NCBI GenBank assembly: GCA_038244685.1
Contig: JBBRTD010000003.1
Coordinates: 3,944-67,943, forward strand
DNA length: 64,000 nucleotides
Reading direction: 5' to 3'
DNA from: Minisyncoccia bacterium
Lineage (GTDB): Bacteria; Patescibacteriota; Minisyncoccia; Phycocordibacterales; UBA9973
Below, one piece after another: positions 2,877 to 64,000 of the stretch. The position numbers were made by a program, and so were the translations under genes. The notes below the pieces were generated by a model. It was not told the DNA's origin, searched no databases, and saw only the letters and a program-made list of their open reading frames with translations. Position 1 is the first letter of the stretch, and each line of letters begins with the position of its first letter.

Positions 2877-2881
2877 AAATT

Positions 2882-4408: not shown

Positions 4409-4411
4409 ATT

Positions 4412-12034: not shown

Positions 12035-12104
12035 ATAAATATATCTGATAAACCGGGGGATAAAATGTGCAAAACTTTCATTATTTTGATATTATATAAA
12101 GTAT

Positions 12105-36536: not shown

Positions 36537-39500
36537 ATGTCCTCTGACGGAACTAAATTAGTTGCTGCGGTTTTTGGTGGCGATATTTATACCTCGACAG
36601 ATAGTGGAGCGACCTGGACAGATAGAACTGGTGCCGGTTTAAGAAATTGGTATTCCGTTTCTTCTTCATCAGATGGAACTATATTAATGGCAGCTAATGA
36701 TGATGGATGGTGGGCTTCATATATTTACACATCAGAAGATAGTGGTGCCACTTGGACACAGCAAACTGGGACGGGTGCTAATCATTTTTGGAGAGCTACA
36801 GCAATATCAGCAGATGGATCCAAAATGGTAGCTGTTGCAAATAATGATAATATTTACATATCAAATAATACAGGGTCAACTTGGATAAAAACTGACTCAA
36901 GTCTTATAACTTGGACATCAGTTACTATGTCTTCTGATGGAACTAAACTAGCTGCAGTTGCTGGTGCTCCGTATCAATATGGTAATCCTAGTTACTATGT
37001 CTATACATCTATTGATGGTGGAACAACTTGGCTAGAACAGACTGGATCTACAAAAACATCATCTAGATTTTCTATTGCTTCTTCTGCTGATGGAACTAAA
37101 TTAGCTACTGCTGATTATGGTATTTATTCGTCGGGTGATTATATAAACAAATCTAACGATAGTGGAACTACTTGGTCAACACAAACAACTGCAGGACAAA
37201 GATTATGGAAATCTATTGCTACATCTGCCGATGGATCAAAATTAGCTGCTGTTGCTTATGGTGGATATATTTATACTTACACACCTACCTTAACTTCAAC
37301 AATAACAACAGACGTTAATTCATCTCTAACTCAAACATCTACTATACTAAATGGAACTATTACAAATATTGGAGAAGAAAATCCAAGTATTAGAGGTTTC
37401 GAGTATGGATTAACTACAGGATACGGAACAACCACAGTAGATAATGGTTCCTTTGGTGTTGGTTCTTTCAGTAAAGATATTACATCGCTATCTTGTGGAA
37501 CTTTGTATCATTTCCGTGCTTATGCGACTAATAGTGGAGGTAAGGCAATAGGAGGTGATCAAACTTTTACAACAAATCCATGTACTTACCCATTACTAAG
37601 TACTAATTCTGCTTCTTCTATATCTTTAACAGGAGCTACTTTAAATGGAAATATTTCAAATATTGGACAAGATAATTCTACAGTTAGAGGATTTCAATAT
37701 GGATTAACAATAAGTTACGGAACAACGACAACAGAGAATGGATCTTTTGCTACAGGAGCTTTTACTTCTGATATTGTTGGTCTAAATTGTGGAAATACTT
37801 ACCACTTCCGTTCATATGCCACTAACTCAATAGGTACTGGTTATGGAGATGATTTAACTTTCGCAGCAAGTAATTGTTCATCTGCCGGTTGGGTTCAGAG
37901 AACAAGTGCTGGGATAAATCCTTGGATGTCAGTTACTACATCAGCAGACGGAACCAAATTAGCTGCGACTTCAAATAATAATGGTAATGGATATATTTAT
38001 ACTTCAACAGATAGTGGTGTCACTTGGACACAAAGAACAGGTGCAGGTTTTAAATTTTGGACATCAATTGCTTCATCTGCAGATGGAACTAAACTAGCTG
38101 CTGCTGTTTACAATGATTATATTTATACATCAACAGATAGTGGGGCCACTTGGACACAGCAAACTGCTCCAGGAATTAAAAATTGGATGAAAATTATTTC
38201 ATCAGCAGATGGAATGATTCTAGGTGCGTGGAATACAAGTGACGGAAGATTTAGTACATCAATAAATGGTGGAGTTGCATGGACAATACAATACGGGGCA
38301 AGTTCAGTTGGAATAGGAGCAAACGTAACAATGACTCCTACTGGAGATAAAATGGCAGGATCTTATGATGGTAATATTTCTTATATTTCTACTTCAAGTA
38401 ATTCTGGTGTTACCTGGACAAAACAATTAAATTCCGACGAACGTAGTTGGAGTGGAATAACAATTTCTTCTAATGGAACTAAAATTGCAGTAACTTCAGG
38501 TGGAATGTCCAATCTTGGTTATATTTTTACATCGACAGACAGTGGAGTAACCTGGACACAGAGAACAAGCGCGGGGAATTTAAAATGGATGGATATTGCT
38601 TCATCCTCTGATGGAAATACATTGATTGCAACAACATTTAATGGTTACATGTATTTATCTAGAGATTCTGGAAATACTTGGATAGAACAAACATCTACAG
38701 GCATAAAATACTGGAAGGATATTTATTCTTCATCAGATGGAAGTAAATTTATAACAATTGGATGTGATACAAATTGCTATATTTACACTTACGAACAAGC
38801 CCACCTTTCAACATTAGATACAAACCCTGCAACCTCCATTCTTTCAAACGCAGCTACTTTAAATGGTTATATTTCTAATACAGGAGGAGAAGTTTCAAGT
38901 GTGAGAGGATTTGAATATGGTATAGATACAAGTTATGGAAAAAATACAATTGAAAATGGATCATTTGGAATTGGTGCGTTTACAAAAAATGTTTCAGCTT
39001 TAATTTGTGAGACCACATACCATTACCGTTCATATACCACAAATGGTGGCGGAAATTCATATGGGGCAGATCAAACATTTACTACTGGTACATGTTCTGG
39101 TATTCCCGTTATGTTAACAAGCGCCGCTTCAAATATATCTCCAACCTCAGTTACCTTAAATGGTGATATTACTGATATCGGATTAAGTAGTCCTACAATA
39201 AGAGGGTTTGAATATGGACTAACAACAAACTATAGTGCATCAAACATAGGTAATGGTACATTTGGAGTTGGTGCATTTTCAAAAAATGTCTCAGCTTTAA
39301 TTTGTGGTTCTACTTATCACTATCGTTCATTTGCTACAAATACCACAGGAACAGGTTATGGACAAGACTTAACATTCAATACAAGTCCTTGTATTTATCC
39401 TTCACTATCTACCAATACTGCAACATTAGTGACTTCTATTTCTGCTACTTTAAATGGATCTATTTCAAATACAGGAGGAGTAAATCCTACAGTTAGAGGT

Positions 39501-42500
39501 TTCGAATATGGAACAACAATAAGTTATGGAACAACTGTAAACGAAAGTGGTACATTTGGAATTGGATCATATACTAAAAATACTACAGGACTTACTTGTG
39601 CAACTCTATACCACTATCGTGCTTATGCAACGAATAGTAACGGAACAGGGTCGGGGAATGATCAAACATTTACCACAGGAACATGTTCTGGAATTTCAAC
39701 ATTAACAACAGAATCAGCAAATTTAATTTCATTAAACTCTGCAACTCTAAATGGAACCATTACAAATACAAGCGGTGAGAATCCAACAGTTCGCGGTTTT
39801 GAATATGGAACAACCATAAGTTACGGAACATCAACAATTGAAAGTGGTTCATTTGGAATTGGAGCTTATATAAAAAACGTTAATACTTTAACTTGTGGAA
39901 CTCTATACCACTATCGTTCATATGCCACAAATAGTGGAGGAAGCGGTTATGGTAACGATCAGACATTTACCACAGGAACTTGCTCTGGTATTTCAACGTT
40001 AACAACAGAAGCAGTATCTACTCTTACTTCAACTTCTGCTACATTAAATGGAACTGTCACTAATACAAATGGTGCTAATCCTACAATTCGAGGTTTCGAA
40101 TATGGAACAACAATAAGTTATGGAACAACTGTAAATGAAAGTGGAACATTTGGAATTAGTAGTTACTCAAAAGATATTTCTTCTCTAACTTGTGCAACCC
40201 TATACCACTTCCGTTCATATGCCACAAATAGCGTTGGAACAGGTTATGGTAATGATCAAACATTTACCACAAACAGTTGTACATACCCTGACTTAACAAC
40301 TACATATGCAACATCAATTGTTAAAACTGCAGCCACACTAAATGGATCTATTTCAAATACAGGAGGAGTAAATCCTACAATTAGAGGATTCGAATATGGG
40401 TTAGATACTAGTTATGGAACTCAAGTAAACGAAAGTGGTTCATTTGGAATTGGATCATACTCTAAAAATATTTCTTCTTTAACCTGTGGAACTCTATACC
40501 ACTATCGTTCATATGCCACAAATGCCAATGGTACAGGAAATGGTAATGATCAAACATTTACTACTGGTACTTGTTCTGGAACAATAGGATGGACGGCTCA
40601 ATATAATATAGGAGCAAAAACGTGGTGGGCAATTGCCTCTTCCACTGATGGAACAAAATTAGCAGCAACAGCCATAAGTGATTATATTTATACTTCTACA
40701 GATGGTGGTTTAAACTGGACGGCACAAATAAATTCAGGAATAAATGGTTGGTATTCAATAGCATCATCTTCTGATGGTAATAAATTAGTTGCAATTGGCT
40801 CTGACTTCAGTGGTTGGGGATATATTTATACATCAACAGACAGCGGAGTGACCTGGACAAAAAGAGTGAGCGCTGGTAATCGTACATGGGGTACTGTGGT
40901 CTCATCTTCAGATGGAACTAAACTAGCAGCAGCTGTTAATAATAGCGATGTATATACTTCTACAGATAGCGGAGCCACATGGACAGAAAGAACAGGAACA
41001 GGTTCACACTACTGGGGAACTGTTGCCATGACTTCATCTGCCGATGGAATGAAATTAGCAATAGTTTATTACAACGGTTTAATTCAAACATCAGTAGACG
41101 GTGGAGCAACTTGGACAGCCCAAGCAAATTCTGGAATGCTTGGATGGTCAACTATAGTTTCATCTGCTGATGGAAATAAATTAGCTGCAGCAACTTCCAA
41201 TAGCTATATTTATACATCTATTGACAGTGGAGTAAATTGGACCGCTCAAACTAATTCAGGAGCAACTCACTACTTTAGAAATATGTTTTCATCTCCAGAT
41301 GGTTCAATATTATTTGCCTTAGATAATAGTTCTACAAATAGCTATATTTATAAATCCATAGACAGCGGAGTGACTTGGACAACTGATGCTATTGCTGGGT
41401 CTAAAAGATGGCAAACATTATCCTCATCCTCAGATGGATCTAAATTAGCAGTTGCAAATTCGAGTGATTATTATATTTATACATATGGAGATATAAATAT
41501 GCCTAAGCCGACAGTAGATACAGCTGTTATTACAGGAGTAAGTACGGTAACACTTAATGGATTTGTTGATACAGATAACACAACTCGAGGATTCCAATAT
41601 GGACTAACAACAAGTTATGGAAATACAACAACAGAAAATGGAACATTTAATTATGGACCAATGACTGCAAATATTTCAGGAATTACGCCTGATGTTACTT
41701 ACCATTTCCGTTCGTATGCGACAAATTTATCTGGAACTGCGTATAGTGAAGACAATATATTTGTTCTTAAATACCAAAACTGGACACCAAATACTATTGT
41801 TGGCTCTCGTTATTGGAGTGCAGTAGCTTCATCATCTGATGGAAATAAATTAGTTGCAGTGGTTCAAGGTGGATATATTTATACATCAACTGATGGCGGA
41901 ACAACTTGGACAGAAAGAAATGGCGCAGGTTCCAGACAGTGGAAAGCAGTTGCCTCATCAGCTGATGGAACAAAACTTGTAGTGGCCAATGGAAGCAATG
42001 GCTTTATATATACATCGACAGATAGCGGAGTTAATTGGACACTAAGAACTTCTTCAGGATTATACTGGTGGATGTCACTTACATCATCATCTGATGGAAC
42101 AAAATTAGCCGCGACGACAGGGAATGGTACGGGATATATTTTCACATCAGCAGATAGTGGAGCAACTTGGGTACAACGTTCAGTTTCCGGTTCCCATAGT
42201 TTTAATTCAATTATTTCTTCAGCAGATGGAACTAAATTAGCAGCAACTGCTTACAGTGATTATATTTATACATCAACTGACAGTGGAGCAACCTGGGTGC
42301 AGAGAACAAATTCAGGTTCTCATAGTTTTTATTCAATTGCATCATCTGCCGATGGAACGAAATTAGCAGCAGCTAGTCATGATTTAAGTGGTTATATTTA
42401 TACATCAACCGACAGTGGAGCAACATGGGTAAAAAGAACAAGTGCAGGTATACGCACTTGGACATTAATTACTTCATCTTCCGATGGAACAAAATTAGCT

Positions 42501-45047
42501 GCAATTGATATAAAAACTTCGACAAGTACTGGCTATATTTATATATCAAATGATAGTGGAGCAAATTGGATAGCTGAAGCAAGTGCAAGTACTCGTGCTT
42601 GGACTTCGTTAACCTCATCAGCTGATGGAAGTAAATTAATTGCAGGAGTAAGTAGTAATTATTTATATTCTTATTCTCTACCAACTTCTCCAATTGTTAA
42701 AACAAACTCAGTAACACTTTCAACTGGAACATCTGTAACTCTAAATGGTCAAATAATAGATAATAAAGGTGACAATTCTACTGTCAGAGGATTCCAATAT
42801 GGATTAACAACAAGTTATGGAACTACAACATTGGAAAATGGATCATTCGGAGTCGGAACTTTTTCAACAAATCTAACAGGTCTTACCGCAAATACTACTT
42901 ATCACTATCGTTCTTATGCAACAAATTCACTTGGGACAAGCTACAGTGATGATGCAACTTTTGAAATAAAACCATTCGTCGAACAAATCACTTCTGGTAA
43001 GCATTATTGGTATGCAATTACTTCATCTTCCGATGGAACAAAATTAGCTGCAGTTGATTACGGTGGAAGTAGTACAGGAAGTATATACACATCAACAGAC
43101 AGTGGCGCCAACTGGACACAAAGAACAACTTCTAATTCACATAAATGGCTATCTATTACTTCATCTGCAGATGGAACTAAATTAGCAGCAGCTGCTTATC
43201 CTGGGTATATTTATACGTCACTCGATAGTGGAGTAACATGGGTAGAGCAGACAAATTCTGCATCATGTAATTGGAATGGGATTACTTCATCTACCGATGG
43301 AATAATTCTTGCTGCAATTGGAACTAATTGTATTTATACATCAGAAGATAGTGGTGATACTTGGACATCAAGGAATAATTCAGGACTTAACGGGGGAAAT
43401 TCAATTACTTCATCTTCAAACGGAATAAAAATGGCAGCAACTAATGGATTAGGTTATATATACATATCAGGAGATAGTGGTACAACTTGGACCGCTCAAA
43501 CAAGCTCAGGTTCACATACATGGCGTTCAATAACTTCATCTGCCGATGGAACAAAATTAGCTGCAATAGATTATCTTGGAACTGGAAGTGGTGGTTATAT
43601 TTATACATCAACAGATAGTGGTGTTACTTGGACGCAACAAACAAATTCTGGAGCTCGATATTGGATGTCAATTACATCATCGACTGATGGAACGAAATTA
43701 GCAGCAGTAGTTAATAATAATTATATTTATACCTCAGTAGATAGTGGAGTTACTTGGACACAACAATCAAGTGGAGGCTTACGTACTTGGTATTCCATTA
43801 CTAGTTCATACGACGGAATTAAAATAATTGCCGCAGCTTCAAATAGTAATATTTTTACCAATACTATTCCAGAAGTTCCATTAGTAAATACGCAAGATGC
43901 ATCTTCAGTTACGGTTAGTTCCGCGGTTTTAAATGCAACCATTGAAAACTTGAGCGGAGAATATCCAATCAGTAAAGGATTTGAATATGGATTAGACACA
44001 AGCTACGGAAGCACTGTTATTATAAATGGAGTATCAAGCCAGAGATCATATGCGATGGACGTAACAGCACTAGCAGAAGATACAACTTATCACTATAAAA
44101 GTTATGCTACAAATACTGTCGGAACAGGTTTCGGAGATGATCAAACCTTCACCACAGCTTCTGTAGAAGAAATAACATCTTTCGATTCAATACCAAATAT
44201 TACTGGAGGATTAGCAGGAAGCCCTACTTATGTAGATGCAGCAGCTATAATCGCAATATTACCATCATCCGTAAAGGCAAATAGTAATGCCGCGACAGTT
44301 CCTGTAACTTCATGGACAAACACTGATTTATATAATACAAATATGCCAGGAAGTTATACATTTACAGCAACACTAGGATCAATCCCTGTAGGATTTGCAA
44401 ACTCTGGGAACTTCACAGCAACGATAGAAGTAATAATTGGAGGAGTTCCTGTTACTGGTGGCAAAATCGAGATAAGAGGCGGTGGAGGTGGTGGATCTTC
44501 AACAAGTACAGTTTATATTGATCAGAAAAAGGATCCAATTCTTCCATCACTACCGAAGTCTGACCTAGAATTAAATTCTATAACAGCACAAGGATGTATA
44601 CCTGGAGGTTTATTCAGTGTAACAACAGGTAAACCATGTACAGGAATAACTCCAATTACACAAGAAGAAAAGACTACAACTGTTAAAACTATTATAGATA
44701 ATAGCCAAATAATAACTAAAACAATTACAGGATGCACAACAGGATCTTTATTCAACATAATATCAGGAGAGCCATGCAGTACAATAAATACAATTCAACC
44801 TTTAGACTCTGTATCTAAAAGCACCAGCTCTCTTGTCTTCACTAAATTGATTAAAATCGGAAGTAGAAGTGCTGATGTCAAAAAAATACAAACATATTTA
44901 AATGCAAGAGGTTTTGATTGTGGAATTGTAGATGGTTACTTTGGCTTCAAGACCAAAAGTAGTCTGATAAATTTCCAAAAAATGAATAAATTAACTCCAG
45001 ATGGAACAGTAGGGAAGATAACAATTCGGGCAATGAATAGTATTTAA
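36537..45047 (+). CDS. Giant (2836 aa) cell-surface protein: 5 blocks of BNR/Asp-box beta-propeller repeats alternating with 11 FN3-like domains, C-terminal Cys-motif and PG_binding_1 anchor
   Basis: About 35 S-x-D-x-G-x-T-W motifs on a ~42-aa period (YIYTSTDSGxTWT...SSxDGTKLAA). Eleven ~98-aa units ending ...YHYRSYATNSxGTGYGxDQTFTTGTCS. C-terminal GSRSADVKKIQTYLN...VDGYFGFKT...FQKMNKLTPDGTVG peptidoglycan-binding domain. Confidence 0.85.
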   Translation: MSSDGTKLVAAVFGGDIYTSTDSGATWTDRTGAGLRNWYSVSSSSDGTILMAANDDGWWASYIYTSEDSGATWTQQTGTGANHFWRATAISADGSKMVAVANNDNIYISNNTGSTWIKTDSSLITWTSVTMSSDGTKLAAVAGAPYQYGNPSYYVYTSIDGGTTWLEQTGSTKTSSRFSIASSADGTKLATADYGIYSSGDYINKSNDSGTTWSTQTTAGQRLWKSIATSADGSKLAAVAYGGYIYTYTPTLTSTITTDVNSSLTQTSTILNGTITNIGEENPSIRGFEYGLTTGYGTTTVDNGSFGVGSFSKDITSLSCGTLYHFRAYATNSGGKAIGGDQTFTTNPCTYPLLSTNSASSISLTGATLNGNISNIGQDNSTVRGFQYGLTISYGTTTTENGSFATGAFTSDIVGLNCGNTYHFRSYATNSIGTGYGDDLTFAASNCSSAGWVQRTSAGINPWMSVTTSADGTKLAATSNNNGNGYIYTSTDSGVTWTQRTGAGFKFWTSIASSADGTKLAAAVYNDYIYTSTDSGATWTQQTAPGIKNWMKIISSADGMILGAWNTSDGRFSTSINGGVAWTIQYGASSVGIGANVTMTPTGDKMAGSYDGNISYISTSSNSGVTWTKQLNSDERSWSGITISSNGTKIAVTSGGMSNLGYIFTSTDSGVTWTQRTSAGNLKWMDIASSSDGNTLIATTFNGYMYLSRDSGNTWIEQTSTGIKYWKDIYSSSDGSKFITIGCDTNCYIYTYEQAHLSTLDTNPATSILSNAATLNGYISNTGGEVSSVRGFEYGIDTSYGKNTIENGSFGIGAFTKNVSALICETTYHYRSYTTNGGGNSYGADQTFTTGTCSGIPVMLTSAASNISPTSVTLNGDITDIGLSSPTIRGFEYGLTTNYSASNIGNGTFGVGAFSKNVSALICGSTYHYRSFATNTTGTGYGQDLTFNTSPCIYPSLSTNTATLVTSISATLNGSISNTGGVNPTVRGFEYGTTISYGTTVNESGTFGIGSYTKNTTGLTCATLYHYRAYATNSNGTGSGNDQTFTTGTCSGISTLTTESANLISLNSATLNGTITNTSGENPTVRGFEYGTTISYGTSTIESGSFGIGAYIKNVNTLTCGTLYHYRSYATNSGGSGYGNDQTFTTGTCSGISTLTTEAVSTLTSTSATLNGTVTNTNGANPTIRGFEYGTTISYGTTVNESGTFGISSYSKDISSLTCATLYHFRSYATNSVGTGYGNDQTFTTNSCTYPDLTTTYATSIVKTAATLNGSISNTGGVNPTIRGFEYGLDTSYGTQVNESGSFGIGSYSKNISSLTCGTLYHYRSYATNANGTGNGNDQTFTTGTCSGTIGWTAQYNIGAKTWWAIASSTDGTKLAATAISDYIYTSTDGGLNWTAQINSGINGWYSIASSSDGNKLVAIGSDFSGWGYIYTSTDSGVTWTKRVSAGNRTWGTVVSSSDGTKLAAAVNNSDVYTSTDSGATWTERTGTGSHYWGTVAMTSSADGMKLAIVYYNGLIQTSVDGGATWTAQANSGMLGWSTIVSSADGNKLAAATSNSYIYTSIDSGVNWTAQTNSGATHYFRNMFSSPDGSILFALDNSSTNSYIYKSIDSGVTWTTDAIAGSKRWQTLSSSSDGSKLAVANSSDYYIYTYGDINMPKPTVDTAVITGVSTVTLNGFVDTDNTTRGFQYGLTTSYGNTTTENGTFNYGPMTANISGITPDVTYHFRSYATNLSGTAYSEDNIFVLKYQNWTPNTIVGSRYWSAVASSSDGNKLVAVVQGGYIYTSTDGGTTWTERNGAGSRQWKAVASSADGTKLVVANGSNGFIYTSTDSGVNWTLRTSSGLYWWMSLTSSSDGTKLAATTGNGTGYIFTSADSGATWVQRSVSGSHSFNSIISSADGTKLAATAYSDYIYTSTDSGATWVQRTNSGSHSFYSIASSADGTKLAAASHDLSGYIYTSTDSGATWVKRTSAGIRTWTLITSSSDGTKLAAIDIKTSTSTGYIYISNDSGANWIAEASASTRAWTSLTSSADGSKLIAGVSSNYLYSYSLPTSPIVKTNSVTLSTGTSVTLNGQIIDNKGDNSTVRGFQYGLTTSYGTTTLENGSFGVGTFSTNLTGLTANTTYHYRSYATNSLGTSYSDDATFEIKPFVEQITSGKHYWYAITSSSDGTKLAAVDYGGSSTGSIYTSTDSGANWTQRTTSNSHKWLSITSSADGTKLAAAAYPGYIYTSLDSGVTWVEQTNSASCNWNGITSSTDGIILAAIGTNCIYTSEDSGDTWTSRNNSGLNGGNSITSSSNGIKMAATNGLGYIYISGDSGTTWTAQTSSGSHTWRSITSSADGTKLAAIDYLGTGSGGYIYTSTDSGVTWTQQTNSGARYWMSITSSTDGTKLAAVVNNNYIYTSVDSGVTWTQQSSGGLRTWYSITSSYDGIKIIAAASNSNIFTNTIPEVPLVNTQDASSVTVSSAVLNATIENLSGEYPISKGFEYGLDTSYGSTVIINGVSSQRSYAMDVTALAEDTTYHYKSYATNTVGTGFGDDQTFTTASVEEITSFDSIPNITGGLAGSPTYVDAAAIIAILPSSVKANSNAATVPVTSWTNTDLYNTNMPGSYTFTATLGSIPVGFANSGNFTATIEVIIGGVPVTGGKIEIRGGGGGGSSTSTVYIDQKKDPILPSLPKSDLELNSITAQGCIPGGLFSVTTGKPCTGITPITQEEKTTTVKTIIDNSQIITKTITGCTTGSLFNIISGEPCSTINTIQPLDSVSKSTSSLVFTKLIKIGSRSADVKKIQTYLNARGFDCGIVDGYFGFKTKSSLINFQKMNKLTPDGTVGKITIRAMNSI
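38805..40572 (+). repeat. Tandem array of six ~294-bp FN3-like domain repeats with long near-identical DNA stretches
   Basis: Recurrent ggaactctataccactatcgttcatatgccacaaatag and caaacatttaccacaggaacatgttctgg segments at ~294-bp spacing. Confidence 0.7.
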
Positions 45048-45086: not shown

Positions 45087-48000
45087 TTGAAAAAATTCAA
45101 AAACCTAAAATTAATTTTCTCAGTTTTTATTAGTCTTCTTATTATTATAAGTAATTTAAATTCGCCAATTTTAGTAAATGGTGAAGATAATTTTAATTAT
45201 AATATTAAAAAAGAAGTAGGAATAAAAAATTATGCCGATGGAGAAATAATTGTAAAATTTAAAGATGACAAAGTAAAATTAGATACAACTTCTGGTAAAT
45301 TAAAAATGGCAACTCTTGCCCAAGATAACTCACTTGAAAAAAAAGAAGACCTAAAAGAGAATAATATTTCTGTTTTTAAAATCAAAGATAATAAAACAGT
45401 AGAAGAAAAAATAGCAGAATTAGAAAGTGATCCAAATGTTTTGTATGCTGAGCCCAACTACAAACGTTATCCAAGTTCTATTAGTACTAATGATACTAGC
45501 AAAAATTTACTATGGGGTCTTGATAATACAAGCCAAACAGTGAACAGCGTTTCGGGCACTCTCGACGCTGATATAGACGGACCAGAAGCTTGGGCAATTA
45601 ATGAAGGGACTAATTCTTCTGTAATCGTGGCAGTAATAGATACCGGTGTTGGATTTAATCATCCAGATATACTTGCAAATATGTGGGATGGAACAAATTG
45701 TAAAGATCAGCTGGGTAATTTTTTAGGAGGATGTAATCATGGTTATGACTACGAAAGCAATGATAAGATTCCATTACCACTAAGTAACTCTCACGGTACT
45801 CATGTCTCTGGTACAATCGCTGCTTTAAAAAATAATAGCAAGGGTATCATCGGAGTTGCACCAAATGCGAAAATAATGGCAATTAAATTTGGCTTTACTG
45901 TTAATGATGAAATAAAAGCAATAAATTTTGCTATTAAAAATGGAGCAAAGATAATTAATGCTAGTTTTGGAGGTAGCTCATTTTCACAATCTGAGTATGA
46001 TGCAATGAATCTATTCAAACAATCAGGCGGAATTTTTGTAGCAGCGGCAGGTAACGATGGTCTCGATAACAATACAATTCCTGTTTATCCTTCAAGTTAC
46101 GATTTAGACAATATCATATCAGTTGCAGCAACTGATCAAAATGATAGCCTTGCGACATTTTCAGACTACGGAACAACTTCAGTTGATGTTGGAGCTCCTG
46201 GTACAAATATTTTAAGTCTTATTACAGATACTGATGGTTCTGATGAAAAATATGGATATGGTAATGGAACTTCTATGGCAGCTCCTCATGTTGCAGGTCT
46301 TGCCGCATTAATCTGGGGAATGAGACCATCTCTTACTTACATCCAGGTCAAAAATATTATATTAAGTACTGGCGATTCGCTTCCGTCCTTAAATACTAAA
46401 ACTGTTTCAGGAAAAAGAATTAATGCATTTAATGCCTTAAATTATGTTTTAACTAATTATATTACTTATCCAACTGCTACTATTACTTACTCAGATACTG
46501 ACTTGATTGTAAAAGCTGGAGATTCATTAACTATTACAGCAAATTTAAATGAACCTGTACTAGACTCTCCATCATTAAAAATATCTATTAGTGGATCAAA
46601 TATATTAGCCCCAACCTTAATGACGAAGGTTAGTAATACGCAATATACATATATATATACAGTTAAAGAAGGGGATGGAATAGCTAATATTAATCTATCT
46701 AATGCAACAAATGCCGAAGGAAATTCTATTGTCAGCATTCCAAGCTCTGGCTCTTCTTTTACTGTTGATAATACAGCGCCAACAATATCAATTAGTTCTC
46801 CATCTGCATTATTTACCAAATCTGGACCTATTACATACATCGCAACATATACAGACGCTACTTCAATAACATTAGCTGATATAGATGTAACCCTAAATAC
46901 TACAGGAGGAGCCACTGGAACAATCAATGTTTCTCCAAACGATGAGACAACAAGAAAAATTTCAATTTCAAATATAAGTGGTGATGGAACACTAGGAATT
47001 AGTATAAATACAAACACTGCCTCTGACATAACTGGTAATATATCCCTATCAACAAGCCCAAGTGAAATTTTTACAGTTGATAATACTGCTCCTTTAAATC
47101 AAGATATAGTATTCAGCTCGTCTTTAAACAAAAAAGGTAGCAGTTTAATAAATATTGTTTCTTCAGAAAACATAAATAATAATGTATGGATTGCACCAGA
47201 AGGAACTAATTTATTTACAGAAAGTTCTACTATAACAAAAGCCATCAACGGCACAGCTCTGAGTATCTTAGCCCCAGAAAGCGAAGGTGTTTATAAAATA
47301 TTTATAATTGATGAAGCTGGTAATATTTCTGCTCCATCTCTATCAACTCTAACCATAGATAATACTGCCCCTTTGATGCCTACAATAACATCAATAGCGA
47401 ATGATAATAAAATTAGTTATGAAGAAAAAAATTCTATTCACATAACAGGAATAGCTGAAGCTAACTCACTTGTAACAATATCTTTAACCGATAATATAAA
47501 TACAAAAGTTGGAACACAACAATTAATAAATAATAATACAAATTATGATATTGAAATTATAGGGTCAGAAGCTATTCCTTCGGCACTTATTGATGGCACA
47601 ATATACATTACAGCTACATCTACAGATGAAGTTGGAAATATTTCCCCAATAAATAATTTAAATGTTGTTCAATCTCCACAAATTATAGTTACAAATAGTG
47701 GAGGCGGTGGGGGTGGTGGTAGCTCGAGTTATACTACACCAACAATTAATCCAATTATAACAACCGCAATACCAACACCGTTGATTAGTCAAACTGCAAT
47801 ACCAGGATGTGACACTATGTCATTATTTAGTACAATCACAGGTAAGTCATGCGGAAATACAAACATAGCACCAATATTTAATACGGATACAAATAAAGAG
47901 ACTCCCGTTTTATATAATATTACTAAAACATTAAAACAAGGTAATAATAATAATGAAGTTAAGGTATTACAAAAATATTTAAATTCAAAAAGTTACTATA

Positions 48001-48146
48001 TATCGCTATCAGGTCCAGGTTCTATTGGCAAAGAGACAACATTATTCGGTCCTGCAACAAAAAAAGCGCTTATTAAATTCCAGAAAGCTAATAAATTAAA
48101 GGCTGACGGAGTAGCAGGAGCTATAACCAGAAGTCTAATTAAATAA
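45087..48146 (+). CDS. Secreted subtilisin-like (S8) serine protease with I9 propeptide, Ig-like (TVDNTAP) repeats and the same C-terminal Cys-motif + PG_binding_1 anchor
   Basis: Catalytic triad motifs VIDTGV (Asp), HGTHVSGTIAA (His), GTSMAAPHVAGLAAL (Ser). TTG start with signal peptide. C-terminal GGGGGGGSSS...GCDTMSLFSTITGKSCG...EVKVLQKYLN...FQKANKLKADGVAG. Confidence 0.85.
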   Translation: MKKFKNLKLIFSVFISLLIIISNLNSPILVNGEDNFNYNIKKEVGIKNYADGEIIVKFKDDKVKLDTTSGKLKMATLAQDNSLEKKEDLKENNISVFKIKDNKTVEEKIAELESDPNVLYAEPNYKRYPSSISTNDTSKNLLWGLDNTSQTVNSVSGTLDADIDGPEAWAINEGTNSSVIVAVIDTGVGFNHPDILANMWDGTNCKDQLGNFLGGCNHGYDYESNDKIPLPLSNSHGTHVSGTIAALKNNSKGIIGVAPNAKIMAIKFGFTVNDEIKAINFAIKNGAKIINASFGGSSFSQSEYDAMNLFKQSGGIFVAAAGNDGLDNNTIPVYPSSYDLDNIISVAATDQNDSLATFSDYGTTSVDVGAPGTNILSLITDTDGSDEKYGYGNGTSMAAPHVAGLAALIWGMRPSLTYIQVKNIILSTGDSLPSLNTKTVSGKRINAFNALNYVLTNYITYPTATITYSDTDLIVKAGDSLTITANLNEPVLDSPSLKISISGSNILAPTLMTKVSNTQYTYIYTVKEGDGIANINLSNATNAEGNSIVSIPSSGSSFTVDNTAPTISISSPSALFTKSGPITYIATYTDATSITLADIDVTLNTTGGATGTINVSPNDETTRKISISNISGDGTLGISINTNTASDITGNISLSTSPSEIFTVDNTAPLNQDIVFSSSLNKKGSSLINIVSSENINNNVWIAPEGTNLFTESSTITKAINGTALSILAPESEGVYKIFIIDEAGNISAPSLSTLTIDNTAPLMPTITSIANDNKISYEEKNSIHITGIAEANSLVTISLTDNINTKVGTQQLINNNTNYDIEIIGSEAIPSALIDGTIYITATSTDEVGNISPINNLNVVQSPQIIVTNSGGGGGGGSSSYTTPTINPIITTAIPTPLISQTAIPGCDTMSLFSTITGKSCGNTNIAPIFNTDTNKETPVLYNITKTLKQGNNNNEVKVLQKYLNSKSYYISLSGPGSIGKETTLFGPATKKALIKFQKANKLKADGVAGAITRSLIK

Positions 48147-55968: not shown

Positions 55969-56415
55969 ATGTCAAAACTATTACAACTTAAAATTGTTAC
56001 ACCAGAAAAACTAATCTTGGAAGAATTAGTTGAACATGTTACTTTGCCAACCAAAGAAGGTGAGATAACTATTTTGGCGAATCATATTCCACTTATTGCT
56101 CCGCTTTCATCAGGGGATATAGTGGCCTTCGTATCAGGAGAACATTTACCAATTGCAGTTATGGGCGGATTCGTCGAAGTAAAAAACAACGAATTTGGGC
56201 AAACAGAAGTTGCAGTACTTGCTGACTTCGCAATACATGTTGGTGATTTATCAGATGAAGTCATTGAGAAAGCGAAAATCAAAGCCGAAGAATTAAAGAA
56301 ACAGGCTCTTAATAATGAGATAGTAGACTTTGAACACTTTGAGTCTGAACTTGAACGATCACTTAATAGAATCAAAATTGCTGATAAATGGAAGAATCGA
56401 AAATATAGAAAATAA
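55969..56415 (+). CDS. atpC: F1 ATP synthase subunit epsilon
   Basis: LKIVTPEKLILEELVEHVTLPTKEGEITILANHIPL beta-sandwich N-domain. Confidence 0.85.
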   Translation: MSKLLQLKIVTPEKLILEELVEHVTLPTKEGEITILANHIPLIAPLSSGDIVAFVSGEHLPIAVMGGFVEVKNNEFGQTEVAVLADFAIHVGDLSDEVIEKAKIKAEELKKQALNNEIVDFEHFESELERSLNRIKIADKWKNRKYRK

Positions 56416-56416
56416 T

Positions 56417-56449
56417 AAAATCCCCCGATCATTTCGGGGGATTTTATTA
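56417..56449 (+). terminator. Terminator of atp operon
   Basis: aatcccccg-atcattt-cgggggatt hairpin, then T-run. A second hairpin at 56466-56500 serves the convergent minus-strand gene. Confidence 0.7.
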
Positions 56450-56520
56450 TAGTAACAATACAAATAAAAAAAACCACTGAAATATAATCCAGCGGTTTTT
56501 TAATATTGTACAGTAATCTC

Positions 56521-56931
56521 TTACTGAAATTCCAATAATTCAGGTTCTGATACCACATACTTTGATTCATACGGGAATTTTTTGCATAAAATAAAAATTA
56601 TTTCACCTTCCATTTTACTTAATTTATCAAATAATTTAGATGAATCAATTCTTATCGTATACTTTTTCCCCTCATTACTTAAATATAGATAATATTCAGT
56701 AGTGGGGATAATGAAATCATTGTATTCAGAACTAATGAAAGGATTCTTCATTCCAAATGAATACTTCTTGGTGCTTACTGATCCCTCGAGAAATACCTCT
56801 TTTGAGATAAAGAAATAGCCGTACAAGTCAATAATTTTTTCCAGAACTTTATCTGAAAAAATAGGTGACATGATAAAAATTACAAATCCGAAAAAGACAA
56901 TAAACAAAAGAATAAATCTGATGATTTCCAT
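56521..56931 (-). CDS. N-terminally membrane-anchored hypothetical protein
   Basis: Single N-terminal TM. No motif. Confidence 0.35.
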   Translation of the reverse strand: MEIIRFILLFIVFFGFVIFIMSPIFSDKVLEKIIDLYGYFFISKEVFLEGSVSTKKYSFGMKNPFISSEYNDFIIPTTEYYLYLSNEGKKYTIRIDSSKLFDKLSKMEGEIIFILCKKFPYESKYVVSEPELLEFQ

Positions 56932-60528: not shown

Positions 60529-60562
60529 GAAAAAAAACAGCCACACTTTTTGAGTGCGGCTG
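60529..60562 (-). terminator. Terminator of secretin gene (minus strand)
   Basis: On the minus transcript, cagccgcac/guguggcug stem (one G-U) followed by U8. Confidence 0.55.
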
Positions 60563-60583
60563 TATTCATTAATTTAACAAAAA

Positions 60584-61888
60584 CTATCCGATGATTCTTG
60601 TGGTTATGAAAACTACAAGTTCAGTTTCATTTTTGTATTTGTTATCAGCTCCGAAAGCATATTTGATAATTGGAATCTTTCTAAAGAAAGGAATCCCAGT
60701 TTTATCGTCTTTGCTTACTTTGTTGATGAGTCCACCAATAGCAACTGTTTCGCCATTTTGAACTTTTAAGATTGTGCTGGTCGAACGACGTGCAACGATA
60801 GGCAGCTTTTGAATACTGGTACCATTTTTAAATTCACGTTCTCCAACAATATCAGATACTTCAGGGTTAACATTTAAACGAAGACTGCCATCACGATTTA
60901 CGAACGGCTGAACATTCATTTTTATTCCCACTTGAACTTCTTTGGTAGTGAAGTAGCTATAAGCTGTACCACCACCTGAGAGTATAAGGAACATATGTTC
61001 TTCTGAAATATTTATCATACCTGCTTCACCTTCTTCTACTATTATTCTTGGCTCTGCTACCATATTTATTTTGGTATCATAACCGCTAGTCGAAAGAAGG
61101 GTACTTAAACCAGATGTCAGGCTTGCTGTAAAAGTGGAAGCTCCACCTTTTATAAGCTCACCGAGACCAATACCAGAAAGATTTATGTCACTCCATTGAG
61201 CACCGATATTCTTTCCTTTTTTCCATTCAACCATTACGAAACGAGCGGTGACTTCAATCTGCCTTTTAGGTTTATCGATAATAGAAATATCTTTTTCTAT
61301 ACGATATAACACATCAGGAGTCGCAGTAATTGTTAACACCTGACCATCAGACTTTATAAAAGGATGATAGTAAGGTGAGATTTGCGACATGATTTTATCA
61401 GCTCCACGATTTGTTTTAACCGTCTTTGTTACAGTTAATGCATCAAAGCTGGTATTTTCCGGTAAAGCACTTCCTACAAGGTAATAACTACCATTGGCTA
61501 TATATGTATATTTATATCCGTTAGGGTACAAAACCATAGCTAAGGCCGTTTCAAGAGGAACTTTTTCTAAAGAAAGTGAGATCGCACCACTGACAGTATT
61601 ATCAGGAATTATATTGATTCCAGCTAACGTAGAAAGATCCATTAAGACTGACCTTATGTCAGTTTCGACGTAAATATTACTTACAAGCACCTGCTTTGTG
61701 CCACTTAATGACACAATCGATTTGACATCGTAATTTTGCTTTGCGAGTGAATCCTCACCATTTTCAAGAGCATTTATCTCTTGGTTGGAAAGCATAGGTT
61801 TAGGAGTTGTTTGTATAGGCGTCCTAACTGTGGCACAACTTGCTACAAGTATGCCAATCAAAATGTACAAAAAACAAGATTTTTTCAT
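60584..61888 (-). CDS. Lipoprotein secretin (PilQ/GspD/RcpA-type outer-membrane channel family)
   Basis: Lipobox ILVASC. Secretin_N-like region. Secretin core RQIEVTARFVMVEW...GGLINKV...GIPFFRKIPIIKYAFG...ELVVFITTRII. Confidence 0.8.
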   Translation of the reverse strand: MKKSCFLYILIGILVASCATVRTPIQTTPKPMLSNQEINALENGEDSLAKQNYDVKSIVSLSGTKQVLVSNIYVETDIRSVLMDLSTLAGINIIPDNTVSGAISLSLEKVPLETALAMVLYPNGYKYTYIANGSYYLVGSALPENTSFDALTVTKTVKTNRGADKIMSQISPYYHPFIKSDGQVLTITATPDVLYRIEKDISIIDKPKRQIEVTARFVMVEWKKGKNIGAQWSDINLSGIGLGELIKGGASTFTASLTSGLSTLLSTSGYDTKINMVAEPRIIVEEGEAGMINISEEHMFLILSGGGTAYSYFTTKEVQVGIKMNVQPFVNRDGSLRLNVNPEVSDIVGEREFKNGTSIQKLPIVARRSTSTILKVQNGETVAIGGLINKVSKDDKTGIPFFRKIPIIKYAFGADNKYKNETELVVFITTRIIG

Positions 61889-61929
61889 TTCGGAAATTTT
61901 AAATTTTAAAAAATAGGATGATGATGAGT

Positions 61930-63081
61930 TTACTTTATTTTTGAAACAATTTTTAAATTAAGATCTTTTCCTCTGTCAGTTATGAAAGGGATAGACCCTT
62001 CTTTGATTTTTGAACCTTCGTAATTAGGGATTATTGTCACCCTTAGATTACGAGATTCGCCAGGCTTAAGTATTAAATCATTTGGAAGTACAGTAATCCA
62101 ATCATTTGATGTGACCTTTATTGCTAAGGGTCGATAATCAAGATTAGAAACAGTTACAACTTCTGACCTTCTACTGTTCGGAGGAATAACTAAAGTTAAT
62201 TCCTTGGTTTTAATTCCTAAAAATTCAGTCGTTTCTTCGTCGATAGGTATCAGCCGGTTTATAGAGAATTTCTCTGTTTTACGAGCTTTTTTAAAATCAT
62301 ACCCATAGTTGAAGGATGTCTCGACAAGATAGTCACCAGTCGGTAACTGCTTATTTAAAACTCCTTCAAAATCAAGTTTTGAACTATCAGGAAATACAAA
62401 ATAATTTCCAATTTCAGTTATTGAACTTCCTAACCCCTTAAGTTCACATTTACCAAAAACATTCCGACCGTCTGCACTTTTAATTACAGCTTCAGCGGTT
62501 ACATTTAGGTGAATGTTGCCAGTATTTTGAAAAGTCGAACTTATCTTTAAACGTTCGTCTGTTTCTAAAACTTTAACTTCAGGAATTTGTCCAGACTTTA
62601 CATAAGTCCGACCGGGAACATCAATTAACACTAAAACGCCAACAACTACACGCACATTCATTTCTCTGTTTTTGCCATAGTCGATGACTTCATCTTCTTT
62701 TGGCTCAACAAAAATTATTGAATAATACTCTCCAGGGACTGCATCCCTCGGAACAGAAATCGTGAATTTGACGGATTCTTTTTTACCATCAAAAACCGAA
62801 AGTTCTGTTCTACCAAAAGTAATCCACTCTACAGCTGAGTGAGCACTACCAATTTTCCTCTCAAATAAAAGCGCACCTTTTCTGTCCATCGATAGGTCAG
62901 ACGGTGAAATAACCAAATTTTGTTTAAAAGGACCCTTGCTCCCAATAATATTGAGATTGAAGGTTTCTTTTGATCCCTTTGCGAGAGTCAGATTGAATTT
63001 TACGGGAGATACTTTCGCCCCGTATACAAAAAAATGACTTACTACAAAGAAAGTCACCAAAATAAAAACAATTCTTTTCAT
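61930..63081 (-). CDS. Secreted/N-anchored all-beta protein, hypothetical (possible secretin-associated assembly protein)
   Basis: N-terminal hydrophobic segment. 383 aa. No motif. Directly 5' of the secretin in the same orientation. Confidence 0.4.
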   Translation of the reverse strand: MKRIVFILVTFFVVSHFFVYGAKVSPVKFNLTLAKGSKETFNLNIIGSKGPFKQNLVISPSDLSMDRKGALLFERKIGSAHSAVEWITFGRTELSVFDGKKESVKFTISVPRDAVPGEYYSIIFVEPKEDEVIDYGKNREMNVRVVVGVLVLIDVPGRTYVKSGQIPEVKVLETDERLKISSTFQNTGNIHLNVTAEAVIKSADGRNVFGKCELKGLGSSITEIGNYFVFPDSSKLDFEGVLNKQLPTGDYLVETSFNYGYDFKKARKTEKFSINRLIPIDEETTEFLGIKTKELTLVIPPNSRRSEVVTVSNLDYRPLAIKVTSNDWITVLPNDLILKPGESRNLRVTIIPNYEGSKIKEGSIPFITDRGKDLNLKIVSKIK

Positions 63082-63085
63082 GTCG

Positions 63086-63574
63086 TTAATTTAGGTTAAA
63101 CAATTTCACTTTTAATTTTGATGCATAAACTCCAGCATCATCAGAAAGGGAACCAATAGTTTTTGTCATAGCTTGAACCTTTAAATCGAGATAAAGAAAG
63201 TACGGCACTCCCTGCATTTTAGGAAATACGATTATTTCAAGAGACACCAGTTCTTCTGGCGTCTTATTCTCAAATATATATGGTTCAACAATTCCGGAAG
63301 AATAAATTTTTCCAGAATACAGTGTAGAGAGTTTGTCGTAAGAAATTAATCCGCGACCACTCTTTTGTTTCTCGTTTCTTTGAAATACCATTTCATCTGG
63401 TATGCCAAAGAATTTTACTTTTTTCGGTCCAAATAAATTTTGACCGATCAAAGCTCTAATTACACCTTCACTTTTTCCTCCAGGAGCGTTGACGTTAGTC
63501 AACTTAAGCTCTTGTTGGGAAAAGCACATAATAGGTATTAATAGAAATAAAAATAAAAAACTTTTTTTGCCCAT
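63086..63574 (-). CDS. Secreted small protein, hypothetical (PilP-sized)
   Basis: Signal peptide MGKKSFLFLFLLIPIMCFSQQ. 162 aa. Confidence 0.4.
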   Translation of the reverse strand: MGKKSFLFLFLLIPIMCFSQQELKLTNVNAPGGKSEGVIRALIGQNLFGPKKVKFFGIPDEMVFQRNEKQKSGRGLISYDKLSTLYSGKIYSSGIVEPYIFENKTPEELVSLEIIVFPKMQGVPYFLYLDLKVQAMTKTIGSLSDDAGVYASKLKVKLFNLN

Positions 63575-63660
63575 TTTTTAAGTTTTAATTTAATTTTCAA
63601 ATAATTTTACTTTGTCGTATTATACAATATTATATATAAAATGTCAATAGATACAACGAA

Positions 63661-63693
63661 AAAAGACACCTCGATAAATTGAGATGTCTTTTA
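63661..63693 (-). terminator. Terminator of partial minus-strand gene
   Basis: aagacaucuc/gaggugucuu stem (G-U wobble) followed by U6 on the minus transcript. Confidence 0.5.
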
Positions 63694-63709
63694 AGATTAC
63701 TTCAGAGCT

Positions 63710-64000
63710 TTATAGCTGAGAAGTTAAAACAATTTTCATCATGGCCTTATACTTTCCGGCATCAGCTGAGTTAATAGCTGTGTAAGCTGAGTTAATAGCG
63801 GTTTGACGAACTGGTACAACTGTACCACCACCTGCAGCAGCTGGTTCATTTTCTGTGTTTACCAGTGCTTTAACCTTAAGAAAGATTTGACCATTGTGAG
63901 GGGCTTCACTGTAAGTTTCGCTTAAAGGAAATTGTCCAGCGTAAACTTTTGTTGCTCCAACACTTGATACACCAAAGTAATCTGATACAGAATTGGCAAC
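63710..64000 (-). CDS. C-terminal 96 aa of a hypothetical protein (possible pilin/secreted subunit), 5' end beyond window
   Basis: Open frame to window edge. Gly/Ala-rich ...EPAAAGGGTVVPVRQTAINSAYTAINSADAG.... No Cys. Confidence 0.35.
   Translation of the reverse strand, partial: VANSVSDYFGVSSVGATKVYAGQFPLSETYSEAPHNGQIFLKVKALVNTENEPAAAGGGTVVPVRQTAINSAYTAINSADAGKYKAMMKIVLTSQL

Follow-up and report, generated by a model that had tools for sequence, protein, structure and literature searches.

The region studied lies at the end of the window, the whole 64,000-nucleotide stretch of DNA analysed here, and holds four genes on the reverse strand: X, of which the window end leaves the C-terminal 96 codons and the stop (63710-64000, stop codon 63710-63712), Y (63086-63574, 162 aa), Z (61930-63081, 383 aa) and a secretin gene (60584-61888, 434 aa). 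All open reading frames of 60584-64000 are present as the initial annotation described them, and X, Y and Z are real upstream genes, predicted to be secreted and co-oriented with the secretin. The full X gene was supplied by a Logan contig (L001), identical to the window over 3636 nt but for one mismatch.

A promoter-like site upstream of Y (63619..63647, reverse strand; TTGACA, 17 nt, TATAAT) agrees with the sigma-70 consensus at 12 of 12 positions, although this is a consensus match alone and that consensus may not be the rule in CPR; the site points to a single operon of Y, Z and the secretin gene. A hairpin with an 11-bp stem, six GC pairs and a T-run, 21 nt past the secretin stop codon (60537..60563, reverse strand), is an intrinsic-terminator-like end of this putative operon. 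A second terminator-like hairpin, with a 12-bp stem, directly follows the stop codon of X (63661..63692, reverse strand), from which X appears to be a separate transcription unit, consistent with other genomes, in which it is found on the opposite strand (L088) or lies past the secretin gene (L003, L103). This predicted arrangement of promoter and terminators fits a major subunit that is expressed separately.

The 434-aa protein had been credited with a lipobox and, on account of three motifs (RQIEVTARFVMVEW, GIPFFRKIPIIKYAFG and ELVVFITTRII), with a secretin core; all three motifs are found in its translation, and this identification holds. Pfam PF00263 (Secretin) matches it with E=1.4e-37 and 129.3 bits (cutoff 27.5) over profile positions 5-168 of 169, and the lipobox lies in its N-terminus, MKKSCFLYILIGILVASC, with Cys18 as the lipid-bearing residue. 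The lipoprotein signal peptide is followed by a linker of ~55 residues, in which the motif TLTxExIxxLE is conserved, a putative N0/STN-like domain (~74-140), one putative N3-type domain (~150-210) and the secretin domain (~210-434); the chain stops three residues past the last barrel strand and has no S-domain. Pfam matches ahead of the barrel are weak (STN, 7e-06, 26.2 bits, cutoff 28.4; N0, E=0.002, 18.4 bits, cutoff 27; Secretin_N, E=0.046, 14.4 bits, cutoff 28.2). In a PDB profile search, which returned GspD, PilQ, pIV, InvG and RcpA, the N0 structure of PilQ (4ar0) aligned to profile positions 70-131, and an N0 motif, VSNxxVxTDxR, is common to the CPR secretins and their diderm relatives.

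The PHROG profile of the phage secretin pIV spans residues 76-433 (E=7.7e-33). When the protein is aligned with M13 pIV, an alignment uncertain by 1-2 residues, R337 falls on the invariant R368 and the hinge residue G297 on the invariant G321, and the C-terminal membrane-association motif is kept. G267 and E185 fall on S295 and M219, neither of them matched, and where pIV has its first hinge glycine of Gate 1 the CPR family has Ser/Thr. Within that family, the Gate 1 region and the C-terminal motifs are strongly conserved.

None of the curated subtype models reached its cutoff. PilQ came first (TIGR02515, 137.8 bits, cutoff 284.35), followed by MshL (119 bits, cutoff 250) and GspD (TIGR02517, 114.5 bits, cutoff 351.35). 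PilQ proper was rejected on this score and because no pil genes flank the module in 22 loci, GspD proper on its score, the single N-type domain where GspD has N0-N1-N2-N3, and the missing S-domain. RcpA/CpaC (Tad/Flp) was also rejected, as there is no match to PF13629, the T2SSD/BON-like domain at the N-terminus of that subtype, and CpaC-type proteins appear at E=1e-13 or weaker; the RcpA structure 8odn obtained 60 bits in the PDB profile search.

The secretin belongs to a CPR-specific clade (43-100% identity, 42 invariant columns) in which the lipobox Cys is invariant in 42 of 42 members, and match E values fall from 1e-106 inside the family to 1e-25 outside it. The named members come from Candidatus Falkowbacteria and Candidatus Portnoybacteria, which agrees with the CPR-like lineage proposed at the outset. 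Closest to the clade are secretins from four diderm phyla, likewise following a Z-like gene: a neighbour-joining tree built from 87 secretins places next to it exactly the four diderm secretins with a Z-like neighbour, and the next-larger clade is mostly PilQ-like, from Armatimonadota, Bacillota and Margulisiibacteriota. Diderm lineages having the Z-secretin pair probably either donated the module or share it by common descent. Profiles, alignments and tree show that the predicted channel protein is a genuine secretin and belongs to a clade of its own; it appears to have the N0-N3-secretin build of phage pIV and, judging from the lipobox, is always lipidated in CPR.

Z has a predicted cleavable signal peptide followed by three beta-sandwich domains, and its AlphaFold2 model (pLDDT 87) bears out the earlier description of an all-beta protein. 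Domains 1 and 2 are homologous to DUF916 and DUF3324 of WxLIP, known from the WxL/WxLIP (Csc) surface-protein clusters of Firmicutes (Enterococcus, Lactiplantibacillus, Listeria; Hassan et al., 2023, PMC10599100). The Z family profile matches EfmWxLIP1 in the PDB (9i1y/9i25, E=5.6e-9, positions 21-153), and Foldseek superposed the Z model on the same structures over ~270 columns (TM (target) 0.61-0.65, rmsd 5.4-5.9), with a second Ig domain (HBD/DUF3324) packed on the first; for the CfaA chaperone, TM was 0.50. The N-terminal PGBD (DUF916) of WxLIPs is recognised at the level of the family profile, with Pfam scores of 14.6 for the window Z and 32.6 for the Phycisphaerae orthologue (cutoff 27.3). 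The defining feature of WxLIPs, a C-terminal transmembrane helix (PMC10599100), is absent from Z, which ends in ...LNLKIVSKIK and whose sole helix is the signal peptide. In its place stands domain 3 (~285-383), Ig-like, of the HYDIN/MSP/PapD-like kind with weak Pfam matches. Distant homologues of Z have genes for true WxL-domain proteins as neighbours, again ordered small-small-Z, and no secretin accompanies them.

The full X protein is 265 aa long from its likely start (MKKSIFMAIA...) and begins MKKSIFMAIAIAIVLFVGNSAVFAQ, a Sec type I leader (MKK...FAQ) also found in eight orthologues. It continues with a Gly/Asn-rich N-terminal region, which lies outside the window, and carries the conserved motifs YANCPF, PRFARxExG, APHNGQ and SADAGxY. 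The initial annotation had seen in X the fragment of a Gly/Ala-rich secreted protein, possibly a pilin: secretion stands, given the Sec leader, but the part at the window edge is just mildly Gly/Ala-rich, and the pilin assignment fails, as the leader is not a class III prepilin leader, which would be short and basic with Gly at -1, Phe/Met at +1 and Glu at +5 and would precede a hydrophobic helix, and X is a paralogue of Y. Y itself, with a Sec signal peptide, is a short paralogue of X (hhalign, 97%, E=5.9e-11) that shares its C-terminal strand, S-D-D-A-G-x-Y-x-A. A relation of Y to PilP, a lipoprotein encoded in pilMNOPQ that has an HR beta-domain at its C-terminus, is not borne out, since the Cys of its leader is not conserved and it matches no family, besides its paralogy with X; the Y family is rare, with 17 representatives among 1.84 billion proteins. 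No PF13731 (WxL) match was found in X or Y even at E<=10, and hhalign against the true WxL neighbours of distant Z homologues gave 2% and 0.9%, with the last strand alone aligned. Leaders and profile comparisons show X and Y to be paralogous, beta-rich proteins presumably exported by Sec. Some loci carry two to three copies of X, as expected for substrates or subunits.

Among 22 CPR-type loci, Z is present in 22, the secretin and X in 21 each and Y in 20, and any other family in at most seven. Gene order is identical in Falkowbacteria, Portnoybacteria and six further CPR contigs with differing flanks, and the secretin directly follows a Z-family gene in all 24 metagenome loci whose DNA continues past Z. 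These gene neighbourhoods show that X, Y, Z and the secretin, and only these four, travel together. No pilus ATPase, platform or prepilin peptidase occurs among the families common to the 22 loci, no pilM/N/O/P, pilB/C/T or prepilin peptidase gene lies within ~10 kb in the eight CPR loci with long flanks, and no outer-membrane or pilus gene was found among ~45 open reading frames of the window scanned against Pfam. Two giant surface proteins of the window (36537-45047 and 45087-48146) each end in PG_binding_1 (Pfam), in line with the peptidoglycan-binding domains noted earlier. The minimal pilus or competence apparatus initially proposed finds no support: no ATPase or platform gene lies beside the module in these 22 loci, X and Y lack prepilin leaders, and the secretin reaches no subtype cutoff.

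The interpretation we favour, tentatively and at slightly less than an even chance, is that the four genes, which occur in a subset of CPR, encode an export or display module that is complete in itself and uses no ATPase, and in which Z would hand X and Y to the secretin. X and Y would traverse the cytoplasmic membrane via Sec and be captured by the DUF916-like domain of Z, much as WxLIP binds WxL proteins through beta-strand insertion. Z would then dock, perhaps by its third domain, onto the N0/N3 ring that the secretin turns towards the periplasm. The gated ring, which the lipid at its N-terminus and the long linker would keep attached to the cell, would let X and Y through the outermost layer of the envelope, and they would be displayed on the surface as subunits of an adhesin or fibre. 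Folding or assembly would provide the energy, as it does in chaperone-usher and curli export. What ties X and Y to Z and the secretin is genomic association.

A first alternative, which we consider unlikely, is that the secretin represents the PilQ missing from CPR, a conduit for a type IV or competence pilus encoded elsewhere, with X, Y and Z accessory to its assembly, alignment or stability. Type IV pilus genes are general in CPR genomes according to the literature, filament machines are the normal clients of secretins, PilQ is the top curated subtype model and PilQ-like secretins dominate the next-larger clade of the tree. However, all subtype scores lie far under their cutoffs, with GspD and MshL nearly equal to PilQ, pil genes are absent from the flanks and from the shared families, prepilin leaders are absent from X and Y, and at every informative locus the secretin gene goes with a WxLIP-like gene instead. 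Moreover, CPR pili do not depend on such a secretin, because most CPR have pili but lack it.

A second alternative, quite improbable in our view, makes X, Y and Z a wall-bound surface complex of the WxL type, as in Firmicutes, and the lipid-tethered secretin a pore or scaffold spanning the wall or S-layer (for the passage of nutrients or DNA, for example), decorated or regulated by the complex and not its export gate. It draws on the secretin-less pairing of distant Z relatives with WxL proteins, and on the description of CPR as monoderm, by which Sec export alone would already place X and Y beyond the membrane. It is opposed by the loss from Z of the helix that anchors WxLIP, by the strong conservation of regions characteristic of gated export secretins, and by the occurrence of the Z-secretin pair in diderms, whose X/Y-like proteins would have to be given a way across the outer membrane.

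It is very unlikely that the module is a host-directed device, whereby an episymbiont places the secretin ring, with X and Y, in the outer membrane of the bacterium it lives on as a conduit for metabolites or DNA: the literature describes CPR as mostly obligate episymbionts with large auxotrophies, and the membrane-association motif is kept although CPR are described without an outer membrane, but the invariant lipobox argues for tethering to the producer cell, and the module also occurs in free-living diderm phyla. Finally, an artefact or relic (a diderm contig mis-binned as CPR, or a recently transferred cassette decaying without function) is suggested by the diderm nature of the nearest non-CPR relatives and by patchiness across CPR, but is scarcely credible and largely refuted by the data at hand, since the module lies in a closed 977-kb Candidatus Falkowbacteria chromosome and in contigs of 150-900 kb, the window contig also carries housekeeping genes typical of small genomes, the GC content is 0.354 in the cassette against 0.329 in the remainder of the window, more than 20 loci have all four open reading frames intact, and the secretins of the family are 43-66% identical to one another, with 42 invariant columns.

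Secretins, which characteristically form 12-15-mer rings in an outer membrane, serve as markers of a two-membrane envelope, PilQ especially, and several CPR genome papers have taken their absence as evidence of a Gram-positive-like envelope. The secretin described here is unusual, as the initial annotation had remarked, given that papers on CPR describe PilQ/GspD as missing; a conserved, intact and always-lipidated CPR clade breaks that rule, and either some CPR own an outer layer that can host a secretin, or secretins can function where there is no outer membrane. Because the secretin is always paired with a WxLIP-like protein, a Gram-positive surface system about which little is understood becomes connected with an export channel of diderms. 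The pairing also defines a compact module of four genes and no ATPase that is amenable to direct testing in cultivable Planctomycetota or Armatimonadota, and CPR biology gains a new candidate surface structure for host attachment. A broader proposal, which we advance as speculative and rather doubtful, is that of an ATPase-independent 'chaperone-secretin' pathway beside T2SS, T3SS, type IV filaments and filamentous-phage export: a WxLIP-like Ig-domain protein would feed small beta-sandwich subunits to a dedicated secretin. In CPR this route would operate with no outer membrane, the lipid-tethered ring spanning the wall or S-layer or engaging the membrane of the host. If this were true, secretins would no longer be a reliable marker of the diderm envelope, and Gram-positive WxL/WxLIP complexes would be a secretin-less remnant of the system.

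Among known systems, the WxL/WxLIP clusters resemble the module in placing a ~380-aa gene with DUF916-like and DUF3324-like Ig domains after one or two small Sec-exported beta-rich proteins, 'long' and 'short'. They differ in the C-terminal membrane helix that stands where Z has its third Ig-like domain, in the WxL domain, undetectable in X and Y (WxLIPs are recognised by at least two clustered WxL-domain proteins), and in the secretin, always present after Z and unreported in WxL clusters; in the literature searched, no paper mentions both 'secretin' and 'DUF916'. Phage pIV (f1/M13; PDB 7ofh) shares with the CPR secretin a similar length, the lack of S-domain and cap gate and, apparently, the minimal N0-N3-secretin build, as well as equivalents of R337 and G297 and a matching C-terminal GxPxxxKIPxI motif. 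In contrast, the CPR protein has a lipidated N-terminus and a long linker, its module contains neither a pI/Zot ATPase nor phage genes, and pIV scored under the GspD and PilQ structures in the PDB profile search. PilQ (type IVa pilus) and GspD (type II secretion) have a homologous secretin domain (PDB profile E=1e-27 to 1e-32) and an N0 domain to which the putative N0/STN-like domain of the CPR protein would correspond, whereas the CPR secretin lacks AMIN domains and an S-domain, has a single N-type domain and has no pil/gsp genes nearby.

HxcQ and BfpB are lipidated, self-piloting secretins ('liposecretins') that in Proteobacteria are sorted by Lol to the outer membrane and serve T2SS or type IVb pili. 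They share with the CPR secretin a lipobox and linker before N0 and the lack of a separate pilotin gene, and BfpB is a weak match in the PDB profile search (E=8.9e-6); the CPR secretin, however, is linked to no Lol, T2SS or type IVb machinery, and its host is presumed monoderm. The likeness to the chaperone-usher pathway is one of mechanism, not homology. The channel there is an usher and here a secretin, donor-strand exchange in the module would be hypothetical, and the model of X bears a weak resemblance to the fimbrial subunits EcpA and BPSL1626, its fold matches being unreliable because the model itself is weak (pLDDT 65). Both systems nevertheless would combine an Ig-fold periplasmic partner with an outer channel and no ATPase, and both have small Sec-exported beta-sandwich subunits that end in a G-x-Y-x-(T/A) strand.

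The minus strand at the end of the window carries four genes in the same orientation, and our analyses show that they form a module in which a true but subtype-less secretin channel has a WxLIP homologue as its constant partner. Some CPR carry this module, and four diderm phyla have a looser version of it. The secretin gene (60584-61888, 434 aa) follows the genes for Z (61930-63081, 383 aa) and Y (63086-63574, 162 aa), and X is read in an open frame that enters at the window end (64000) and reaches its stop codon at 63710-63712. A Logan contig (L001), with a single mismatch to the window across 3636 nt, provided the missing start of X. Full-length X has 265 aa, beginning MKKSIFMAIA..., including a stretch rich in Gly and Asn, and its leader is of the Sec type; the initial annotation had proposed a possible pilin fragment here, but the leader speaks against it. 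Beyond X lies an unrelated, divergently transcribed gene. On the minus strand, a terminator-like hairpin follows X (63661-63692) and a strong one follows the secretin (60537-60563), and a perfect promoter-like TTGACA-17-TATAAT precedes Y (63619-63647), all three being consensus matches only; from these signals, X looks to be transcribed alone and Y, Z and the secretin as one operon. The GC content of the cassette (0.354) is close to that of the remaining window (0.329). Another 162-aa ORF (56082-56570, minus strand) runs antisense to the gene for ATP synthase epsilon (55969-56415) and most likely represents no gene but a shadow ORF.

That the 434-aa protein is a true secretin, as first read from the sequence, was borne out by its match to Pfam Secretin (E=1.4e-37, 129 bits against a cutoff of 27.5) and by a profile of 42 family members that matched the solved structures of GspD, PilQ, pIV, MxiD/InvG and RcpA. 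Pfam matches to STN, N0 and Secretin_N were weak. The PHROG profile of phage pIV aligned residues 76-433 to positions 29-400 of 403, from which the predicted architecture is a minimal N0-N3-secretin one; since the protein ends three residues past its last barrel strand, it has no S-domain. HMM assignment thus placed the protein in the secretin family and in no subtype: none of the NCBIfam subtype models reached its cutoff, and the protein was not assigned to PilQ (138 bits against 284), MshL (119 against 250), GspD (114 against 351), HofQ (85 against 554) or SctC (66 against 238). The reported lipobox also held, its cysteine being invariant in 42/42 aligned sequences, and a linker motif, TLTxExIxxLE, is conserved across the same alignment. 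The invariant lipid anchor and the long linker would allow the secretin to be tethered to the cytoplasmic membrane.

A large protein search returned 46 close relatives (43-100% identity; full-length copies of about 420-470 aa), beyond which E-values fell from 1e-106 to 1e-25. Named members belong to Candidatus Falkowbacteria, where the copy sits in a closed genome (CP066698.1, 977,025 bp), and Candidatus Portnoybacteria, with further copies on contigs of 156-901 kb; the clade is CPR-specific. Of the intermediate hits, P0048 and P0049 proved to belong to tandem secretins whose gene context is unrelated. The next-best matches after the CPR family are secretins of 555-591 aa, arranged as a tandem pair on each of two metagenome contigs (L091, 8001-11591; L092, 4485-8045) and lacking any pilus, T2SS or Z-like neighbour. 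The window itself encodes aminoacyl-tRNA synthetases, peptidoglycan synthesis, glycolysis, the pentose-phosphate pathway and an F-type ATPase, as expected of a small genome, and no outer-membrane or pilus gene was found among its scanned ORFs. Its assignment to CPR is based on these genes together with the homologues that carry a name. The surface proteins with peptidoglycan-binding domains noted at the outset are two giant ones, both on the plus strand and both ending in PG_binding_1: a 2836-aa BNR/sortilin-repeat protein (36537-45047) and a 1019-aa subtilase (45087-48146), probably wall-bound. Elsewhere in the window, four same-strand genes (742-5485, plus strand) encode a ThiF-like (E1-like) protein, a Glu/Leu/Phe/Val-dehydrogenase-like protein, a 508-aa protein with no Pfam match and a protein weakly matching nitroreductases, a mix that recalls peptide-modification (azoline/RiPP-type) clusters; a gene for a 7TM histidine kinase follows (5490-7133).

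Fold prediction confirmed that Z is all-beta: the AlphaFold2 model (pLDDT 87) shows three beta-sandwich domains behind a signal peptide. A CpaB/PilO-like protein had been suggested, but the best superpositions were with WxLIP (9i1y/9i25, TM 0.61-0.65 across some 270 columns), and the match to CfaA, a fimbrial chaperone, was weaker (TM 0.50). Consistent with this, the family profile of Z matched the solved WxLIP of Enterococcus faecium (E=5.6e-9), and the most distant of its 43 detectable relatives carry Pfam WxLIP_PGBD (DUF916).

Searches of Pfam, NCBIfam, PHROG and PDB gave no sequence match for X or Y. The two are mutual paralogues (hhalign 97%, E=5.9e-11) with a C-terminal strand in common, S-(A/D)-D-A-G-x-Y-x-A. 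Of 1.84 billion proteins, just 17 representatives belong to the Y family. The model of X, built on seven homologues, was weak (pLDDT 65), and its Foldseek matches (EcpA, a fimbrial protein, jelly-roll capsids) all had TM<0.46 and are unreliable. An assignment of X and Y as WxL domains was dropped after Pfam at E<=10, PDB profiles and hhalign all failed except for the terminal strand; against the WxL neighbours of distant Z homologues, hhalign gave 2% and 0.9%, on that last strand alone. The likeness of X and Y to WxL proteins is regarded as a positional analogy only, and we make no claim of homology.

Falkowbacteria, Portnoybacteria and a further six CPR contigs show the order X-Y-Z-secretin between flanks that are unrelated; in some CPR loci X is found downstream of the secretin or on the opposite strand. 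Scanning metagenomes with the closer Z sequences gave 35 loci, some with two or three copies of X, and a secretin directly followed the Z-family gene wherever the DNA continues past Z (24/24 loci). Among the CPR-type loci L094, L096, L097 and L103-L106, some have X in two or three paralogous copies, and some have a Z of about 500 aa that includes an extra segment, or a Y of about 250 aa; the module is thus diversifying at its presumed cargo end. In one CPR genome, a region 4-10 kb downstream of the module (L087, 14949-21311) holds Thoeris genes (ThsA Macro, ThsB TIR), a methyltransferase, a terminase-like gene and a serine recombinase, and resembles a mobile or defence island.

The initial annotation read the module as a minimal pilus or competence apparatus, a role that it could have, although gene content in the loci analysed does not support it. 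When all ORFs from 22 CPR-type loci were clustered, only four families were common to them, namely Z (22), the secretin (21), X (21) and Y (20), with no ATPase, platform protein or prepilin peptidase among the shared families; every other cluster occurred in at most seven loci, reflecting either shadow ORFs on the opposite strand or local synteny. Three CPR loci (L003, 15283-15651; L089, 17898-18368; L005, 2430-2870) have small T4SS_pilin/TrbC-like genes at 5-8 kb from the module; two of the three are mutually syntenic, and the proximity could be due to chance. In five loci a TPR protein is encoded upstream of the module; it was discarded as a pilotin, being membrane-anchored, a matter of local synteny and absent from the window. 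A phage origin was rejected, as the secretin alone matches a PHROG (pIV) and Z, Y and X match none, and the PHROG search found no Zot-like gene with the module.

Scanning a genome collection with the secretin alignment yielded at least 80 secretin loci, with a single CPR species representative among the matches listed. Outside CPR, and again among the matches listed, a Z-like gene lay directly upstream of the secretin in four loci only, from Zixiibacteriota (L008), Gemmatimonadota (L009), Phycisphaerae (L010) and Fimbriimonadales (L011), whose secretins, by E-value, were also those nearest to the CPR clade. A neighbour-joining tree of 87 secretins, calculated without support values, placed exactly these four in the clade next above CPR. 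A lipobox is present in only one or two of them, whereas all CPR copies have it. The Phycisphaerae Z passes the Pfam threshold for WxLIP_PGBD, and the two small genes upstream of it end in the same G-x-Y strand as X and Y and were the top matches to the X/Y profiles among 105 ORFs of the four loci, with marginal E-values (0.005 and 0.03). The Phycisphaerae locus also has a second, GspD-like secretin upstream (55-2121) and, directly after the Z-linked secretin, a TPR protein with a lipobox (LALAGC; 11218-12243) that is a possible PilF/PilW-like pilotin; no such protein was found in the window. More distant Z homologues, without a secretin, adjoin genes for true WxL-domain proteins and keep the small-small-Z order. 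One cluster without a secretin (L128, 3572-7116; WxL, weak, plus WxLIP_PGBD) lies beside an archaeal-type flagellin gene, and may come from a Chloroflexota-like monoderm with an archaellum.

A secretin is indeed unexpected here, as had been pointed out: papers on CPR state that PilQ and GspD are missing and use this as an argument for a Gram-positive-like envelope, a review of monoderm pili describes monoderms as having neither secretin nor outer membrane, and Coleman et al. regard PilQ as specific to diderms. In the open-access literature we found no paper bringing together a secretin and DUF916, although an earlier mention elsewhere is possible, and the top matches for WxL and secretin were off-topic. 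The feature is real, conserved and unusual, and its first interpretation is supported in part: a new clade of secretins occurs in a novel genetic setting and in a lineage not expected to have any secretin. An ATPase-less chaperone-secretin mechanism, if true, would constitute a new class of secretion pathway.

Among known systems, we aligned the secretin to M13 pIV, taking as key residues those highlighted in the f1 pIV structure paper. R337 of pIV corresponds to the invariant R368, the Gate 1 hinge G297 to the invariant G321, and the pIV C-terminal GVPFLSKIPLIGLLF is matched by GIPFFRKIPIIKYAF; in contrast, the other hinge glycine, G267, aligns with Ser/Thr in the family. WxLIP, for its part, consists of DUF916, DUF3324 and a C-terminal membrane helix, and binds WxL proteins (PMC10599100). 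Z differs in lacking this helix, in place of which it has a third Ig-like domain with weak Pfam matches of the HYDIN/MSP/Cep192 type.
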